Shown here in pieces: positions 15,459 to 23,378 of a DNA stretch of 36,095 nt (positions are counted from its first letter, which is position 1; the number at the start of each line of letters is the position of its first letter). Made by a program: the position numbers and the translations under genes. This stretch comes from Patescibacteria group bacterium (lineage in GTDB: Bacteria; Patescibacteriota; Minisyncoccia; UBA9983). The notes beneath the pieces are model-generated. The model searched no databases. It worked only from the letters and a program-made list of their open reading frames with translations, and was not told where the DNA came from. The stretch covers positions 1 through 36,095 of the forward strand of contig JAHIOX010000025.1 in assembly GCA_018895015.1 (NCBI GenBank), written 5' to 3'.

Positions 15459-17450
15459 CTACACGTCCAAATTCTGGACGGCTTTAGCGTGAGTTTGGAT
15501 AAAAATTCTACGCGGCTCCACTTCGCTGCCCATCAAAATTTCAAAAATTTTATTGGCTCCATCGGCGTCATCAACAGTTATCTGCTTCAAAACGCGCCGT
15601 TCTGGATCCATGGTCGTCTCCCATAACTGCCCCGGGTTCATTTCTCCCAAACCTTTATATCTTTGGATGCCATATCCCTGGGTGTCTCCGTTTCCTATAA
15701 TTTTATTCTTTTCATCCTCGCTGTACGCGTAAAAAATTTCCTTTCCTTTTTGAATCCTAAAAAGAGGAGGAAGCGCTACGTACAAATACCCGTGTTCAAT
15801 AACGGGCAAGTAATATCTGAAAAATAACGTGAGTAAAAGCGTGCGGATATGCGAACCGTCAACATCCGCGTCTGTCGCGATTATAATTTTATGATAACGG
15901 ATTTTACTGATATCAAACTCTTCCGCGATGGCGGCTCCCAAAGCGATAACCAAAGATTTGATTTCTTTTGATGCCAGCATTTTATCGATTCTCGCCCGCT
16001 CAACATTCAAAATTTTTCCCCTTAACGGAAGAATGGCTTGAGTTCTTCTGTTTCTTCCCTGCTTGCTTGAGCCGCCAGCCGAATCTCCTTCCACGATAAA
16101 AAGCTCCGATTCGCTTGCGTCGCGCGACTGGCAATCCGCCAGCTTGCCCGGCAAAGTCAGCCCTTCAAGAATACCCTTTCTAAGGACGCTGTCTTTCGCG
16201 GCCTTGGCCGCTTTGCGCGCCCTTAAAGACAAAACAACCCTTGAGATAATGGCTCGCGCGTCATTCGGGCTCTCTTCCATAAACTCGGAAAACGCATCCG
16301 AGAAAACCGCTTCTACCGAGCCCCTTGCCTCCGGGTTGCCAAGCTTGGCTTTTGTCTGGCCTTCAAACTGCGGCTCTCTCAATTTTACGGAAACGACAAC
16401 CGTTAAACCCTCGCGCACATCCTCGCCTGTAAAATTATCCTCTCCTTGTTTAACCAAATTATTTTTCTTCGCGTAATCATTAAGCGCGCGCGTAAGAGCT
16501 GTTCTAAAGCCAGTCAAATGCATTCCACCTTCAGGCGTATAAATATTATTCGCGAAACTAATCTCTTTCGCCAAAATATCGTCAATATACTGCAAAGCTA
16601 TTTCCGTTGTAATGCCGTTTGATTCTTTCTCAACATAAAAAACTTTATCCTGTATAACTTTTTCTTCTTTATTCATGAATTTTATCATAGATAAAATTCC
16701 GCCTTCAAAATAAAAAGTGTGCGAATTTACCGGCAGATTAAGCGACTCCAAAAACAAAACTTCTGACTGCCCGGCAGGCATGCCCAAATCGTCAATTTTG
16801 CCGCTGTATTCTCTGGCATCAATAATATTAATTTTTAATTTTTTTACTAAATACGCCTGGCGCCGCAAATGGCCTACTACTTTACCCCAGTCAAATTTTA
16901 TTTCTTGAAAAATTTCCGGGTCAGGTTCAAAAATAACCGTTGTTCCTTGAAATTTGCTCGGTCCAATTTTTTTTACCCTTGCAGCCGCCTTGCCTCTTTT
17001 ATATTCTTGAATGTATTTCGCGCCATCGCGATGGACTTCAGCGCGCATCCAAACCGAAAGAGCGTTCACGACAGAAACTCCGACGCCATGCAAACCTCCG
17101 GCAATTTTATAAGATTCTCCTCCAAATTTTCCTCCGGCGTGAAGCGTAGTCATAACTGTTTCCAGCGCTGAAACTTTTGTTTGTTTGTGAATTTCAACAG
17201 GAATTCCGCGGCCATTATCAGCCACGCGCACTCTGTTTCCCGGCAAAAACGCGACCTCCACTTGATCCGCGAATCCGCCCATTGCTTCATCGCGGCCATT
17301 ATCAAAAACCTCCCATACAAGATGATGAAGCCCGTCCAATCCGGTTGAACCAATATACATTCCCGGGCGCTTTCGCACCGGCTCAAGCCCCTCTAAAACA
17401 TAGATATCTTTGGCAGTATACCCGTTATTCGCGCCATTGTTCTTTGCCAT
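15459..17450 (-). CDS. gyrB: DNA gyrase subunit B
   Basis: LEGLEPVRKRPGMYIG, DNGRGIP, GGLHGVGVSVVNALS, VEGDSAGG, PLRGKILN, DADVDG, YKGLGEMNP. Confidence 0.98.
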   Translation of the reverse strand: MAKNNGANNGYTAKDIYVLEGLEPVRKRPGMYIGSTGLDGLHHLVWEVFDNGRDEAMGGFADQVEVAFLPGNRVRVADNGRGIPVEIHKQTKVSALETVMTTLHAGGKFGGESYKIAGGLHGVGVSVVNALSVWMRAEVHRDGAKYIQEYKRGKAAARVKKIGPSKFQGTTVIFEPDPEIFQEIKFDWGKVVGHLRRQAYLVKKLKINIIDAREYSGKIDDLGMPAGQSEVLFLESLNLPVNSHTFYFEGGILSMIKFMNKEEKVIQDKVFYVEKESNGITTEIALQYIDDILAKEISFANNIYTPEGGMHLTGFRTALTRALNDYAKKNNLVKQGEDNFTGEDVREGLTVVVSVKLREPQFEGQTKAKLGNPEARGSVEAVFSDAFSEFMEESPNDARAIISRVVLSLRARKAAKAAKDSVLRKGILEGLTLPGKLADCQSRDASESELFIVEGDSAGGSSKQGRNRRTQAILPLRGKILNVERARIDKMLASKEIKSLVIALGAAIAEEFDISKIRYHKIIIATDADVDGSHIRTLLLTLFFRYYLPVIEHGYLYVALPPLFRIQKGKEIFYAYSEDEKNKIIGNGDTQGYGIQRYKGLGEMNPGQLWETTMDPERRVLKQITVDDADGANKIFEILMGSEVEPRRIFIQTHAKAVQNLDV

Positions 17451-18075: not shown

Positions 18076-18450
18076 ATGGGCAGATTTGAAAAATTTAAAA
18101 AGGGGGATTGTCTAATGGAAATGACATGCACGATAATTGGTGGAATTATTCTTTATTTTTTTGTAGGGATTATTTTTTGCGGGATAGAAGTGAGATGGCA
18201 TACCTATGATAGATTATTTTATTTTTTAGGCGGTGATCCGTGGCCAGAAGAATGCAATTTTGCCGACAAAATGTCATTCGTGATTTTTTGGTTGCCATTA
18301 GTTCTTATCATTATTTTGATGCTAATAAAAGAAATTCTATTCGGCTTGATAAGGATATTTATAAAACCAATCGTGGTTTTTTTCACTAGCGGATTCCGCA
18401 TGCCGAAAAAAGAGGTGAATGGGAATGAACATAATCATGAAATATCTTGA
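18076..18450 (+). CDS. Small membrane protein (2 TM), start possibly at 18115
   Basis: Two hydrophobic stretches; SD-like AAGGGGG before ATG 18115; terminator downstream. Confidence 0.6.
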   Translation: MGRFEKFKKGDCLMEMTCTIIGGIILYFFVGIIFCGIEVRWHTYDRLFYFLGGDPWPEECNFADKMSFVIFWLPLVLIIILMLIKEILFGLIRIFIKPIVVFFTSGFRMPKKEVNGNEHNHEIS

Positions 18451-18567: not shown

Positions 18568-20934
18568 CTATTTTCTCACTTCCCATTCCGGATTTGATTC
18601 AATGGCTTTAAAAATTTTTCCCATAATCGCGTTTATTTCGCTGTCAGAAAGAGTCTTTTGGTAAGATTGAAATTTTAGATGGAACGCGAAAGATTTTCTG
18701 TTGTCTTTTTCAAAAATATCAAACAAATCAGCGTCTACCAAAAGCTTGCCCGCGATATTTTCTATAGTATCAAGAACTTCAATGACTTTTGTTTTTAACG
18801 AAACAAAAACCGCGATGTCGCGCGACGCGACAGGATACACGGAAATCGGCCTGAATTCCATTTCTTCGCTCGCCAATTTTATAAGCTCCTCAAAATTAAT
18901 CTCCCATCCCCATGATTGCGCGAATTTGTCTATATGCCCCACTGACGCATTCCCTATTCTAATATCCGCTGTTTTATTCGCATGCTCGGCAAAATAAAAA
19001 TCGCTGATACCGATTTTTTGCAAAATTACGCTAACAACGCCTTTTATTTCGTTAAAATCGCTATCCTTGAGCGCGCCTGCGAAAGAAAGAATCTCAAGAC
19101 TGAAAGCGGGAAAAATTTTCCCAATCTCAAAAATTTTAATCTTATCAAAATAACGGCTATTGTCTTTTATGCTAGTGTATAATCCGTCCAGCAAATTAGT
19201 CCGCAAAAACGCCTTGTCTTTCGCGATTGGATTCTGAAGCTCCATTTCGCCTTTATCGGAAAAAGAATAGTTATAAACTTCTGAAAATCCAAGCCCGACT
19301 AAAATATTTCTGGCGGCATCGGTGTAAAAATAATTGTCATTTCGTTTTGCCGGAATCAGCATGCCTTCGGGCATTTTCGGCTTAATATTTTCGTAGCCGA
19401 AAATCCTAGCCACCTCCTCAATCAAATCCTCTTTTATTCTCACGTCCAATCTTTCAAAAGGAACACCGGCAATAAGCAAATCGTCGCCGCTGTTAAACAT
19501 TCTTTTTATTGCTATGATGTTTTTAAACCGTTTTGAAGTTTTCAGATTTTCAATAAGAACGCCTCTGCTGTTATACCTTGATGAGTGAATAACTTTCCCG
19601 TTGCCTAAATATATTCCGCAATGGTCAATTCCCTCTTTTATTTTCATGCCTTTCATAAACTCCAACGATTCATAACGCGCTTTTCCGATTTTTGTATTTG
19701 AAAAAATCATATCTCCTGGCTGTATTTCTTTTTTATCAACAGATTCGCCGAAAAAATACTGGTCAACGGTCATTCTTGGAATTTGAATTCCGGAATGCGC
19801 GAAAACATAAGCCGCAAAAGAGGAGCAATCAAAGGCGTTCGGCGCGTCAAAACTTACGCTTGCCCCGTATTTATACGGCTTTCCTTCCAGACTTTTCGCG
19901 AGAGCCAAAATATTTTTCAGCGGATTTATTTTTTTTATCTCAAAACCCAAAGATTTTAAAATATCAATAATTTCTTTTTCGGGAATTTCAATGCCTAAAT
20001 TTTTTGAAACATCGCGGGGATGAATGCCGATCTTGTACTGATTCGCTTTTTTAGGATATATGTCAATTTTGGCAGCGGCTTTTCCTCCGGCTGTTTCTAA
20101 AATCAAACCGGCCAGCCTTTCAATCGCAGCCAGCGCGGTCTCAGGCGAAAGTTCATTTTCAAACCTTAAAGACGATTCGGTGCGCAGATTCAACCGGCGC
20201 ACGGTTTTTCTTATGTTAATCGGCTCAAAATTCGCCGCCTCCAAAATTATATTTTTTGTTCCGCCGTCAATCTCGGCTTTTTTGCCGCCCTTTACTCCGG
20301 CAATCGCCAAAACTCCTTTGTCATCCGCAATGACAAGCGTATCATCGCTCAACTCAAATTCCTGATTATCCAAGGTAATAATTTTTTCTCCTTTTTTCGC
20401 TTTTCTAACAATAATCGCTCCATCAACTTTATCCGCGTCAAATGCGTGCAATGGCTGACCCATTTCAAACATCACATAATTGGTTGCGTCCACAATATTA
20501 TTAATTGATTTTTGGCCAATGGCTTCCAATCTCTCCTTCATCCATTTAGGCGACGGCCCGACTTTCACGCCCTCAATCGCTATGCCAATATACCGTCTGC
20601 ATAACATCGGCTCTTCAACTTTTATTTCTAATTTTTTTGAAGTCTTGGAAATTGGAAATTTTTTGGAAATTGTCCACCAGCTGGCGGATTTGAAATTAGA
20701 AATTCTCATTATGGCTGCAAGCTCGCGAGCAACGCCAAAATGGCACAAACAGTCGTGCGCCCGATTCGGCAAAATATCAATATTCAACAGAAAGTCCGAC
20801 TTCCCGCTTGGAAGTCGGACTTTCAAGACGCTCTCAACTTCAAAACTATGCATAGTCAAAATCTCCGCCACTTTTTCCGGCTTCGGCAATTTTTTATCAA
20901 AATATGATTGCAACCAGTTATAAGATATTTTCAT
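18568..20934 (-). CDS. pheT: Phenylalanine--tRNA ligase beta subunit (no B2 OB-fold) with an internal NlpC/P60 domain
   Basis: MKISYNWL, ILPNRAHD, NNIVDATNYVMFEMGQPLHAFD, RLDVRIKEDLIEEVARIFGY, RDIAV FDX-ACB domain; about 145-aa insert in B5. Confidence 0.97.
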   Translation of the reverse strand: MKISYNWLQSYFDKKLPKPEKVAEILTMHSFEVESVLKVRLPSGKSDFLLNIDILPNRAHDCLCHFGVARELAAIMRISNFKSASWWTISKKFPISKTSKKLEIKVEEPMLCRRYIGIAIEGVKVGPSPKWMKERLEAIGQKSINNIVDATNYVMFEMGQPLHAFDADKVDGAIIVRKAKKGEKIITLDNQEFELSDDTLVIADDKGVLAIAGVKGGKKAEIDGGTKNIILEAANFEPINIRKTVRRLNLRTESSLRFENELSPETALAAIERLAGLILETAGGKAAAKIDIYPKKANQYKIGIHPRDVSKNLGIEIPEKEIIDILKSLGFEIKKINPLKNILALAKSLEGKPYKYGASVSFDAPNAFDCSSFAAYVFAHSGIQIPRMTVDQYFFGESVDKKEIQPGDMIFSNTKIGKARYESLEFMKGMKIKEGIDHCGIYLGNGKVIHSSRYNSRGVLIENLKTSKRFKNIIAIKRMFNSGDDLLIAGVPFERLDVRIKEDLIEEVARIFGYENIKPKMPEGMLIPAKRNDNYFYTDAARNILVGLGFSEVYNYSFSDKGEMELQNPIAKDKAFLRTNLLDGLYTSIKDNSRYFDKIKIFEIGKIFPAFSLEILSFAGALKDSDFNEIKGVVSVILQKIGISDFYFAEHANKTADIRIGNASVGHIDKFAQSWGWEINFEELIKLASEEMEFRPISVYPVASRDIAVFVSLKTKVIEVLDTIENIAGKLLVDADLFDIFEKDNRKSFAFHLKFQSYQKTLSDSEINAIMGKIFKAIESNPEWEVRK
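19495..19929 (-). other. NlpC/P60 domain inserted in PheT B5
   Basis: AKSLEGKPYKYGA...FDCSSFAAYVF...IQIPRMTVDQY...IQPGDMIF...DHCGIYLGNGKVIHSS...IKRM; Cys codon 19825-19827, His 19621-19623, His 19585-19587. Confidence 0.93.
20645..20704. repeat. TCCACCAGCTGGCGGA palindrome embedded in TT(G/A/T)GAAA heptamer repeats inside pheT
   Basis: Palindrome at 20673-20688; translates RISNFKSASWWTISKKFPISK in the B1-B3 linker. Confidence 0.75.
20790..20824. repeat. 15-bp perfect inverted repeat inside pheT
   Basis: GAAAGTCCGACTTCC-CGCTT-GGAAGTCGGACTTTC, encoding KVRLPSGKSDF. Confidence 0.9.
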
Positions 20935-21803: not shown

Positions 21804-21824
21804 TTACTCGTTACTCGTTACTTT
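21797..21824. repeat. 7-nt tandem repeat across the glycosyltransferase stop codon
   Basis: TTACCAA TTACTCG TTACTCG TTACTTT. Confidence 0.65.
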
Positions 21825-23342
21825 TTTATGTTTTGGTGTAGCCCAAAAGCCCATATACTTGCCAAGCAAAAGGCGAGTTTGAGAATCCACTCCGGGAATC
21901 GCTCCAAAAATTGGAATCGTTAATGGAATCAGAATCCATTGCAAAACCATAAATAAATATTTGTATTTCTTTTTCCGCGCCGGCATAGGCGGCAAAAGGC
22001 TCATTGAAATTATTGCCGACATAATCAAGCCAAGCATTGCCAAAGTCATCAAATTTCTTGTAACCCGCGGCAAATTATAAGAAAGCAAAGTTTTATTAAA
22101 ATTCTGGCCACCCAAGAAAAGAGGAAGCCACCCAAGAAAAAAAATTATCAGCGGGTTTGTCGCCAAGGACCAAAAACCCTCAATTTGCACGAACGCGAAT
22201 CTTAATTTTTTGCTTAATGAAATTTTTTTGTTTCTTAAAAAACCAAAAAGTATGTATGGCACATTTTCAACGCCCCAACTCCACCTCCTCTGCTGTTTGT
22301 ACACATTTTTTATCGTTCCTAAAAAAGTCGGCGCGAGATTGGCATCCAAAGACACGGGATAAGAAAGAGGCACCACTTGGTAATCTCCGTTAAAATGCAG
22401 CAACGAATTCCAAAAAATGCGCGAATCCTCGGAAACCATATTCTTCTGCCAATATCCAACTTCGTAAAGCGTCTTAAAACTCATTGAATGAGAGGAAAAT
22501 GTTGATAGCCTTTCAGGCCTTTCCTGCTGAATCATTTGCCAAAAAGTGCCTGATACTGCCACGACGCGCGAAAACGCGGGGGCGTCCCAAATATTATTGT
22601 TGTAAACCGGCACAGGCTGGAAAGAAGACCGGTACGGCTTTTCACAAGTCAAAAAATGCCAAGTGAGGCATAAAAAATACTGCGGATAGACGCGCGTGTC
22701 TATGTCAAAGGCAGAAACTAAAACATTTTCGTATTTAATATTATTTTTATCCAAAATTTTTTTTCTTGCCTCTTCGGCGGCATAAGCGATATTTGAACCT
22801 TTGCCCGGCATTTCCCCCTCAAGCCCGTCCGGATGTTTTACGGCTAAAAAATGCATAAATTTATTTCCGTATTTTTCATAAACACTCTTCACGACTTTTT
22901 CCGCTTCTTCCCCGGCCCTTTGCTCATAAGCAAGGATTATTATCATTTTGCCTTGCGGCCACTGAGACTCAACCAATTTTTCCATTGTGGCTAAAACCAC
23001 GTCCAAACCCTCTTTATAAAAAGGCAGTATTACCATTTGCAAAACATGGTCATATTTGATATTTTGAAGCCTTTTCTCCCAATCCATCTTTAAATAACCG
23101 CGCATTCTTTTCCAATTGACACGCAGATGCGCTGACAAATACACCGTTTTGACAAGCCAATATATGTCAAAAACAATTATAAAAAAGGCTGCCCACAAAG
23201 GAACAACCCATGCCATTAAAACAACTCCGAGCAAAGTTAGCCAGGTAAAAAAACCAGGCATGATTTCCAGCGCTCTGTAAATTTTTCTGTCTTTTCCTTT
23301 AAGCTCGCTAGCTCTTCCAACGCGCGAATATTCATAAAGCAT
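21804..23342 (-). CDS. Membrane-bound processive family 2 glycosyltransferase
   Basis: PFYKE, PGKGSN, FDIDT (DxD), VSEDS, QQRRW motifs; N- and C-terminal TM helices; start placed at ATG 23342 on promoter spacing. Confidence 0.85.
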   Translation of the reverse strand: MLYEYSRVGRASELKGKDRKIYRALEIMPGFFTWLTLLGVVLMAWVVPLWAAFFIIVFDIYWLVKTVYLSAHLRVNWKRMRGYLKMDWEKRLQNIKYDHVLQMVILPFYKEGLDVVLATMEKLVESQWPQGKMIIILAYEQRAGEEAEKVVKSVYEKYGNKFMHFLAVKHPDGLEGEMPGKGSNIAYAAEEARKKILDKNNIKYENVLVSAFDIDTRVYPQYFLCLTWHFLTCEKPYRSSFQPVPVYNNNIWDAPAFSRVVAVSGTFWQMIQQERPERLSTFSSHSMSFKTLYEVGYWQKNMVSEDSRIFWNSLLHFNGDYQVVPLSYPVSLDANLAPTFLGTIKNVYKQQRRWSWGVENVPYILFGFLRNKKISLSKKLRFAFVQIEGFWSLATNPLIIFFLGWLPLFLGGQNFNKTLLSYNLPRVTRNLMTLAMLGLIMSAIISMSLLPPMPARKKKYKYLFMVLQWILIPLTIPIFGAIPGVDSQTRLLLGKYMGFWATPKHKKVTSNE

Positions 23343-23344
23343 AA

Positions 23345-23378
23345 TTGCATTATATGCACAACGGGGGTATAATTTCAA
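23345..23378. promoter_or_regulatory. overlapping divergent sigma70 promoters
   Basis: Plus: TTGCAT-17-TATAAT-7-ATG(23381). Minus: TTGAAA-18-TATAAT-6-ATG(23342). Confidence 0.7.

Follow-up and report, generated by a model that had tools for sequence, protein, structure and literature searches.

An NlpC/P60 peptidase-family domain within the B5 domain of the phenylalanyl-tRNA synthetase beta subunit in Patescibacteria

The stretch of DNA analyzed here (the window; 36,095 nucleotides, contig JAHIOX010000025.1 of assembly GCA_018895015.1, from a Patescibacteria group bacterium) carries a pheT gene whose product, the beta subunit of phenylalanyl-tRNA synthetase (PheRS), contains an NlpC/P60 hydrolase domain within its B5 domain. 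The source genome measures 570 kb and is 98% complete. pheS lies directly upstream of pheT, and the minus-strand order is glycosyltransferase-like gene, pheS, pheT, C39-like peptidase gene and gyrB, with a plus-strand open reading frame (ORF) of 124 amino acids (aa) after pheT (Table 1). The original prediction, made from the sequence alone, described about 145 extra aa in B5 bearing the NlpC/P60 hallmarks GKPYKYG, FDCSSF, IPRMTVDQY, QPGDMIF and DHCGIYLGNGKVIHSS. All of these are present in the 18568-20934 translation, and 19495-19929 corresponds exactly to residues 336-480, which sit at the B5 hairpin when PheT is aligned to solved chains. The observation of an NlpC/P60 domain inside PheT was thereby confirmed.

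The protein that hosts the insert is recognizable as a bacterial PheRS beta subunit. NCBIfam model pheT_bact (TIGR00472) matched it with 500.6 bits (cut-off 402.65), and Pfam placed B3_4 at residues 112-283 (E 7e-67), tRNA_synthFbeta (the B6/7 catalytic-like module) at 517-668 and FDX-ACB at 698-787. The profile check that had been proposed for the insert gave an NLPC_P60 (PF00877) match at residues 351-469 (E 4.1e-20; 72.1 bits, cut-off 23), with B5 split into two pieces around it, the best stretch of which (481-514) covers profile positions 34-67. In the whole-genome scan the insert scored 73.1 bits and was the sole PF00877 match in the window's genome. Alignment to the solved E. coli chain pairs query residue 334 with 438 and query residue 483 with 440, so that approximately 148 residues replace a single residue of the B5 hairpin. 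The insert's GC content (0.35-0.40) is the same as that of its flanks, and a compositional anomaly was rejected on these grounds. B2 (tRNA_bind, PF01588) found no match in the window PheT, where query residue 47 aligns to E. coli residue 155. As B2 absence is reported to be common in PheT of the candidate phyla radiation (CPR; PMC5370408), this is no argument against membership in bacterial PheRS beta. PheRS in the window is minimal in both subunits, PheS consisting of the catalytic core only, without an N-terminal extension, and PheT lacking the B2 OB-fold.

Table 1 Coordinates of the features in the window and of two related proteins in other genomes.
Feature	Position	Strand	Evidence or remark
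Glycosyltransferase-like membrane protein, 524 aa, multi-pass	21804..23378	-	Weak PgaC_IcaA match; upstream anchor of the conserved block
pheS, PheRS alpha, 257 aa	20994..21767	-	Pfam tRNA-synt_2d, E 2.5e-101, residues 6-257
pheT, PheRS beta, 788 aa, single unbroken frame	18568..20934	-	Pfam, NCBIfam, alignment to solved PheT chains, AlphaFold2
B3/4 editing domain, editing-site residues retained	20086..20601	-	Pfam; mapping onto solved PheT
B5 N-terminal half, up to strand 332-336	19930..20052	-	Pfam, solved-chain alignment, AlphaFold2; holds Y300 and G303
Inserted NlpC/P60 (C40) domain, residues 336-480	19495..19929	-	Pfam, PDB sequence search, AlphaFold2, Foldseek
Pfam core of inserted NlpC/P60 domain, residues 351-469	19528-19884	-	Pfam NLPC_P60
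Catalytic Cys370 codon, DCS motif	19825..19827	-	Translation
Sub-insert of NlpC/P60 domain, residues 413-435	19630..19698	-	Gap versus 7cfl and 4xcm
Catalytic His438 codon	19621..19623	-	Translation
Third triad residue, His450 codon	19585..19587	-	Translation
B5 C-terminal half, starting with strand 486-490	19393..19494	-	Pfam, solved-chain alignment, AlphaFold2; holds positions 486, 488 and 499
Hydrophobic candidate ORF, 124 aa, between pheT and C39-like gene	18076..18450	+	No Pfam or NCBIfam match
C39-like papain-fold peptidase, 188 aa	17457..18023	-	Pfam Peptidase_C39_2, E 4e-13
gyrB	15459..17450	-	ORF; phmmer locus maps; downstream anchor of the conserved block
G313 protein, 226 aa, shortened B5 halves around insert-type NlpC/P60	L030:4861-5541	-	Between monomeric PheRS gene and gyrB
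NlpC/P60-Peptidase_C39_2 fusion, 328 aa, one protein (G116)	L029:4388-5374	-	Pfam domains

Sequence and structure comparisons place the insert among cell-wall hydrolases. Searched against PDB sequences it gave 35 matches, the best being 7cfl_A (E 1.2e-19) and 4xcm_A at 33-35% identity. Except for a 'putative uncharacterized protein' and a 'hub-hydrolase', these matches are named NlpC/P60, cell-wall hydrolase/endopeptidase or invasion protein. The insert modeled alone with AlphaFold2 (56-sequence alignment) reached a predicted local distance difference test (pLDDT) score of 91.6. As the original prediction expected, its closest structure in Foldseek was an NlpC/P60 enzyme, the C. difficile autolysin Acd24020 (7cfl_B; template modeling (TM) score 0.79 by query and 0.93 by target, root-mean-square deviation 1.3 Å). 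The Foldseek matches listed were all NlpC/P60-type peptidases or cell-wall hydrolases, one of them a diffocin baseplate chain, with TM scores of 0.65-0.79 by query, and a papain-like alpha+beta fold is thus supported by both tools. In the model of full-length PheT (80-row alignment; mean pLDDT 92.3, 93-98 in the insert region) the insert is bracketed by strands 332-336 and 486-490, which locates it at the wing of the helix-turn-helix (HTH)/winged-helix-like B5; B1 and B5 have been described as HTH 'DNA binding-like' domains (PMC3275996). Residues 413-435 form a sub-insert of approximately 20 residues that canonical wall enzymes lack and stand-alone homologues have in a shorter form, and its pLDDT of 60-74 in the insert folded alone compares with 93-97 in full-length PheT. 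The Pfam scan matched the insert to neither Tyr_Deacylase (DTD) nor Pept_tRNA_hydro (Pth), and gave no SH3b match in the window PheT.

The catalytic residues are strongly conserved. In the query and 105 orthologues (106 sequences, 38-99% identical in the insert), which were chosen by similarity to the insert so that the counts show constraint among carriers and not prevalence, C370 and H438 were present in 106/106 and H450 in 100/106, the others having Y (three), F (two) or D (one). D369, R387, D408 and F411 were likewise retained in 106/106 each, and S371 in 97/106. The expectation that orthologues keep the catalytic residues was therefore borne out, and it extends to 71 free homologues, where the corresponding C38 and H97 never vary and H109 is kept in 90% or more. 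Among 197 insert-bearing PheT, identity to the query was 51% for the insert and 48% for the backbone, with the insert the more conserved of the two in 79%; judged by this comparison of identities, the insert is under purifying selection. The two identities correlate (r = 0.85), which indicates that insert and host protein diverged together. In the Bacillus enzyme BcYkfC, Asp237 and Ser239 flank the catalytic Cys and hold D-Glu by its NH and alpha-carboxyl (PMC2954226), and an Asp-Cys-Ser of this type is also retained around the insert nucleophile. The position 18 residues after the Cys, the counted equivalent of YkfC Asp256 (mapped by counting from the Cys), is M, I, V or L in 104/106. Taken together, the sequences and models identify the insert as an NlpC/P60 (MEROPS C40) domain with an intact Cys-His-His triad at the tip of the B5 hairpin of PheRS beta.

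Comparison of 198 insert-bearing with 42 insert-less PheT was used to locate backbone positions conserved only in carriers, and all of these lie within B5: G303 (91% of carriers versus 2% of non-carriers), Y300 (80% versus 5%), R499 (76% versus 10%), R at position 486 (70% versus 2%) and V at position 488 (65% versus 12%). No position with comparable carrier-only conservation was found in B1, B3/4, B6/7 or B8 of the same proteins, and no sequence sign of docking on the editing or catalytic modules was seen among them. As carrier-only conservation is confined to B5, the insert probably packs on this domain, and by these sequence patterns insert and B5 are a co-evolving two-domain module.

The same architecture is widespread and patchy at once. 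Among 108 database matches to the insert region, 105 were PheT-length proteins with the same Pfam set (from NCBI, JGI, ENA and Logan assemblies). An assembly chimera is contradicted by the single open frame and by the recurrence of this architecture in at least 105 clusters from independent assemblies. An exhaustive representative search listed close PheT relatives of both kinds, insert-bearing ones matched in one stretch and insert-less ones (617-713 aa) matched in two. The 240 PheT sequences compared were bimodal in length at the insert site (125-172 residues in 198, 1-50 residues in 42), a carrier ratio that is biased towards carriers because the query itself contains the insert. In a class-wide genome sample, PheT with the insert was found in 24/401 genomes (18 by locus maps, 6 by a match across both B5 halves). 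In the survey of PheT orthologues called for by the original prediction, the insert is thus found at one site and in a minority of the class sample. Within family f1, 9/17 other genomes have the insert, and a phylum sample (401 genomes) added nine candidate carriers in other classes with frames of 929-970 aa, the size of the B2-containing carriers P0103-P0105. The genome relatives are 63-70% identical, a distance at which saturation of synonymous sites is expected. In public annotation some of these pheT genes are named 'C40 family peptidase' by NCBI and others 'phenylalanine--tRNA ligase beta subunit-related protein'.

Loss appears to have been frequent and clean. A FastTree phylogeny of PheT without the insert columns required 24 state changes, against a shuffled mean of 39; starred branches force at least 16 of the 24. 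In the sister proteins P0069 and P0214, which are 73% identical over 637 backbone positions, the domain is cleanly swapped for three residues, and the scars in insert-less PheT are generally clean and 1-15 residues long. These phylogenetic data indicate that the insert is inherited with the PheT backbone and has been repeatedly lost. Any PF00877 match is missing in 24/41 relatives, including all eight insert-less f1 genomes; together with the minimum of 16 state changes, this suggests that the activity is accessory and not essential. In two insert-less proteins (P0229 and P0245) an unrelated stretch of 44-50 residues occupies the B5 site and the N-terminal half of B5 is barely aligned (FFT-NS-2), which may be an alignment effect.

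In a FastTree phylogeny of the domain itself (138 columns), wall enzymes formed the outgroup (99*), all 71 sampled inserts grouped with the domain of genome G313 (support 83), and the free forms made up a second group (support 90). This tree is compatible with a single insertion event, although it does not prove one. The patchy presence and clean excision scars might also recall a self-splicing or mobile intein-like element, or an assembly or frameshift artefact, and the original prediction had raised a self-processing insertion as one option. We give this explanation a minimal probability, as inserts form one group, their divergence follows that of the backbone, the frame is uninterrupted and the architecture recurs across independent sources. 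Nothing besides PheRS domains and NLPC_P60 is reported by Pfam (E <= 0.01), so that an intein-like insertion is already contradicted by the lack of any Hint or homing endonuclease domain in that scan; close homologues of ~150 aa exist as free proteins, and the insert is predicted to be well packed on B5. It is also very improbable that the insert is a non-catalytic structural or nucleic-acid-binding appendage that makes up for the missing B2 and alpha coiled coil. In favor of it, neither B2 nor an N-terminal extension of PheS is present in the window PheRS (Pfam and alignment; PMC5370408), and B5, which carries the insert, is DNA-binding-like (PMC3275996). Against it, the triad hardly varies, if at all, among sequences of 38-99% identity, insert-bearing PheT with B2 (PF01588) exist (P0043 and P0103-P0105, to which the 929-970-aa candidate frames in other classes may be added), and PheT with neither insert nor B2 are common.

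The domain also occurs outside pheT. In the class sample, 26 genomes encode a stand-alone homologue of 143-201 aa that shares 34-44% identity with the insert; with G116 (an NlpC-C39 fusion) and G313 (a 226-aa form) the total comes to 28 genomes, and the protein database holds 148 such stand-alone proteins. None of the stand-alone homologues appears to have a signal peptide, as their frames leave no room for one and their N-termini are hydrophilic. Based on these sequence comparisons, the insert belongs to a Patescibacteria-specific NlpC/P60 clade without signal peptides whose members also exist as free proteins of 145-170 aa. In 13/28 genomes the stand-alone gene lies directly beside a gene for a monomeric PheRS of 375-402 aa (class II core, PF01409, plus FDX-ACB, PF03147); these comprise all 12 carriers among the 19 sampled f19 genomes, and G313. 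The two frames overlap by 4-11 bases in most loci and are separated by gaps of ~10-30 bases in L009, L013 and L014. The monomeric PheRS scored 210 bits on TIGR00469, under the cut-off of 258. Monomeric PheRS replaces PheST in family f19 and in 6/41 relatives, all six of which hold a full-length monomeric gene; G035 had no B3_4 match in the family search, the other five gave no B5 or PheT match to the window query, and an NlpC gene was found in just one of these six. Monomeric mitochondrial-type PheRS loci were recorded at L035:5454-6602 (G035), L006, L007, L009-L011, L013-L018, L030 and L055-L057. In 2010, PMC3275996 called mitochondrial PheRS the only known monomeric form.

The G313 protein links the fused and the adjacent arrangements. 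It nests in the insert clade of the domain tree, within a 99* group of 66 rows, aligns to the window PheT across both B5 halves (44% identity, 200 residues, E 2e-52), and lies in the same glycosyltransferase-to-gyrB frame as the window. It also retains Y300, G303 and the consensus residues at positions 486 and 488. From its place in the tree, the B5-spanning alignment and the locus, this protein is best read as an excised B5+NlpC relic of pheT, left behind after PheT loss. The NlpC clade is therefore tied to PheRS in three architectures, namely inside pheT, overlapping the start of a monomeric PheRS gene, and as a relic beside a monomeric PheRS gene. The original prediction had spoken of a moonlighting fusion; the fusion itself stood, while 'moonlighting' understates a PheRS link that persists across these three architectures.

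This linkage is incomplete, as 13/26 free copies lie elsewhere in genomes with ordinary PheST. Neighbours of 10 free copies away from PheRS were SerRS, IF-2, IMPDH, a methyltransferase, DUF5667 (four cases) and two genes without a family, and no common theme beyond translation genes was apparent among them. Free copies in G035, G037 and G031 adjoin tRNA-Met/tRNA-Asp genes (L002:2914-3237, L003:3011-3622, L004:3629-3797), and that of G383 comes after the seryl-tRNA synthetase gene (L008:601-1830). No NlpC-monomeric PheRS fusion was found among 37 longer matches, all of which had wall-hydrolase architectures; this is weak evidence because PheT fusions escaped the same search. A complex prediction for free NlpC with monomeric PheRS scored 0.00 and, being without controls, counts neither way.

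A second papain-fold gene accompanies the domain at many of these loci. The C39-like gene stands between pheT[NlpC] and gyrB in 11 loci (the window, L038, L039, L041, L042, L048, L049 and L051-L054) and is absent from this interval in six others. It lies directly 3' of monomeric PheRS in eight f19 loci with NlpC and three without, adjoins free NlpC copies in G118 and G331, and is fused to NlpC/P60 in G116 (Table 1). Across the class sample, C39-like homologues occur in 32/401 genomes, 20 of which also carry the NlpC clade, a co-occurrence uncorrected for phylogeny. Gln19, Cys33 and His135 of the C39-like protein are kept in 23/23 homologues, and by eye the N-terminus of the window protein has no hydrophobic signal-like stretch. 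The C39-like peptidase is thus often a member of the pheRS-gyrB block. At the upstream end of this block, the glycosyltransferase-like gene keeps its position before the PheRS genes in distant relatives (L030, L038, L039 and L051-L054). As the whole block is syntenic, part of the NlpC/C39 linkage may reflect inheritance. Two papain-fold peptidases with intact catalytic residues in one operon-like block, once fused, could also act on proteins or peptides rather than on gamma-D-Glu bonds; they might process or degrade, for example, PheRS, nascent chains or peptides imported as a source of amino acids, and the organisms are inferred auxotrophs in the literature. We consider such a role improbable, since NlpC/P60 enzymes with this motif set are gamma-D-Glu bond amidases and not general proteases (PMC2954226), and since no cleavage products or split PheT were seen among the 105 orthologues, contig-end fragments apart.

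The recurrent association with two kinds of PheRS keeps options related to Phe-tRNA alive. The state of the editing machinery was compared between carriers and non-carriers. Editing-site residues of PheRS B3/4 include His265, Asn254, Thr354 and Ala356; among the 198 insert-bearing PheT, the equivalent of His265 is H in 195, that of Asn254 N in 197 and that of Thr354 T in 188. For the two residues named as editing-site residues in PMC3275996, the Gly315 equivalent is G in 198/198 and the Glu334 equivalent E in 163/198. These residues are alike in the 198 insert-bearing and 42 insert-less PheT, and this conservation led us to reject the insert as a replacement for an editing site in decay, a variant of the editing role considered in the original prediction. 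DTD (PF02580) was matched in 0/41 relatives (G000-G040; control genomes, 8/14), with or without NlpC, so there is no contrast by which the insert could be identified as a DTD stand-in, and this candidate was set aside. A role as Pth substitute was also rejected, as Pth is present in 39/41 relatives.

What remains of this family of explanations is a PheRS-directed thiol hydrolase or transferase, in which the NlpC/P60 enzyme, perhaps with the C39-like enzyme, would attack a Phe or near-cognate ester or amide made or bound by PheRS. Candidate substrates would be mischarged or D-aminoacyl-tRNAPhe (extra editing), Phe-tRNAPhe (thioester transfer) or an aminoacyl-adenylate-like inhibitor (antidote). 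Esters and thioesters are within the reach of papain-type Cys chemistry. The linkage of the clade to two PheRS types of different structure (within pheT in 24/401 genomes, beside monomeric PheRS in 13), a relic that stayed beside the new PheRS in G313, the lack of DTD in all 41 relatives and a patchy distribution that fits a quality-control or resistance add-on all speak for it, as does the absence of a B3/4 editing domain from monomeric PheRS (domain scan; PMC3275996). Conversely, PheT shows no editing gap with or without the insert, carrier-specific conservation is confined to B5 and absent from B3/4, B6/7 and B8, half of the 26 free copies lie elsewhere in genomes with ordinary PheST, and 5/6 relatives with monomeric PheRS lack NlpC/P60. 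The DTD pattern offers no contrast, Pth is not being substituted, and by sequence and fold the domain falls among peptidoglycan DL-endopeptidases with the D-Glu-binding Asp-Cys-Ser retained. On balance we regard a PheRS-directed enzyme as doubtful, though it carries some weight. Its most specific form, in which NlpC/P60 and the C39-like protein would be a PheRS-dedicated thiol enzyme forming an acyl-Cys intermediate from (mis)acylated tRNAPhe or an aminoacyl-adenylate-like molecule, seems slightly more doubtful still.

The reading we favor, at a probability of roughly 40%, is that the insert is a cytoplasmic gamma-D-glutamyl amidase acting on soluble peptidoglycan-derived peptides, with PheRS as its carrier, since its sequence, fold and retained D-Glu-binding residues match gamma-D-glutamyl amidases. 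Cys370, His438 and His450 would hydrolyse a gamma-D-glutamyl-diamino-acid type amide bond in such peptides in the cytoplasm, the compartment to which insert-bearing PheT, in agreement with the original prediction, is assigned by context. The outcome would be stem-peptide salvage or recycling in an amino-acid auxotroph, as with YkfC and DPP VI in Bacillus and YkfC in Chlamydia. B5 would take the auxiliary part that SH3b plays in YkfC, providing support and steric gating, and such gating may keep the enzyme off the cell's own precursors. PheRS would be a constitutively expressed carrier and operon partner, not the catalytic target, and the amidase activity would be accessory and not essential. 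Cytoplasmic NlpC/P60 precedents are available in YkfC and DPP VI of B. subtilis (PMC2954226) and YkfC of Chlamydia trachomatis (10.1101/2022.11.17.516864). The window's genome encodes MurE, MurF and a penicillin-binding protein, and FemAB (PF02388) was not found in it.

Several points weigh against an amidase of this kind. Muropeptide salvage gives no reason for the clade to stay with PheRS in three architectures, although this adjacency may be inherited synteny and not selected coupling, as the whole glycosyltransferase-pheRS-C39-gyrB block is conserved. YkfC Asp256 binds the free L-Ala amine, and the lack of SH3b together with a hydrophobic residue at the counted Asp256 equivalent indicates that the insert does not belong to the YkfC type. 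Without gating, a DL-endopeptidase in the cytoplasm could turn on the UDP-MurNAc-peptides of its own cell (PMC2954226), and LD-carboxypeptidase S66 (PF02016) was not found in the window's genome. The position of half of the stand-alone copies away from PheRS is neutral in this respect and suggests that tethering is not required. The functional assignment itself is from homology only.

Among known systems, the wall DL-endopeptidases (Acd24020, 7cfl; the T. thermophilus enzyme, 4xcm; CwlO, LytE and MepS) resemble the insert in fold, in the Cys-His-His triad and in the DCS and PR..Q motifs, at 33-35% identity, but they are exported and bear wall-targeting domains, whereas the insert has no signal peptide, resides in a cytoplasmic synthetase and contains the ~20-residue sub-insert. 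CtdA is a free relative of the PheRS B3/B4 editing module. Both are unrelated to the insert in fold and chemistry, and B3/4 is present and conserved beside it. They nevertheless offer a parallel, being likewise hydrolytic modules that clear wrong aminoacyl-tRNA, B3/B4 as an attached part of PheRS beta (PMC3275996) and CtdA as a derivative of it. YkfC/DPP VI of Bacillus and YkfC of Chlamydia are likewise NlpC/P60 enzymes and act on soluble stem peptides in the cell (PMC2954226; 10.1101/2022.11.17.516864), and 3h41 was among the sequence and fold matches of the insert. YkfC-type enzymes, however, depend on a free N-terminal L-Ala, a requirement imposed by SH3b and an acidic residue, whereas the insert has B5 as its partner, no SH3b and a hydrophobic residue at the counted position. 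The PheRS genes beside free NlpC have the two-domain make-up of mitochondrial monomeric PheRS (PF01409 + PF03147, ~375-400 aa), but unlike the mitochondrial form they are bacterial, occupy the position of the pheST locus and are operon-linked to NlpC/P60 and C39-like genes. Modular reshuffling of synthetase domains is known from the same phylum, for example B2 fused to TyrRS in CPR bacteria (PMC5370408), but modules of that type are RNA-binding, whereas the PheT insert is a peptidase-family enzyme. In the literature searched (full text, without supplementary files) no paper was found on NlpC/P60 in PheRS or on a bacterial monomeric PheRS-NlpC operon. The component families and public protein entries are known, while the architecture and the three-way PheRS linkage are new.

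To our knowledge, it is rare for an aminoacyl-tRNA synthetase to house an unrelated enzyme within one of its domains. Over a large part of the Patescibacteria, a peptidoglycan-type cysteine amidase domain has been preserved intact within PheRS, an enzyme essential for translation, and the NlpC gene stays beside the synthetase gene even where PheRS has been replaced by the monomeric form. The finding also matters for annotation, given the pheT genes now labeled as C40 family peptidases. The contrasts that nature provides, with versus without the insert, free versus fused, and heterotetrameric versus monomeric PheRS, make the question testable. If the enzyme were directed at PheRS, it would represent an undescribed PheRS-linked quality-control or transfer chemistry, and a PheRS-dedicated enzyme that heterotetrameric PheRS carries as a fusion, and that monomeric PheRS, itself without editing, receives in trans, would constitute a new papain-fold class of synthetase-associated editing, antidote or aminoacyl-transfer module. 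If instead the favored salvage amidase is correct, the insert would show cytoplasmic cell-wall peptide salvage in minimal, host-dependent bacteria, and B5 would be a new auxiliary domain of the NlpC/P60 family.

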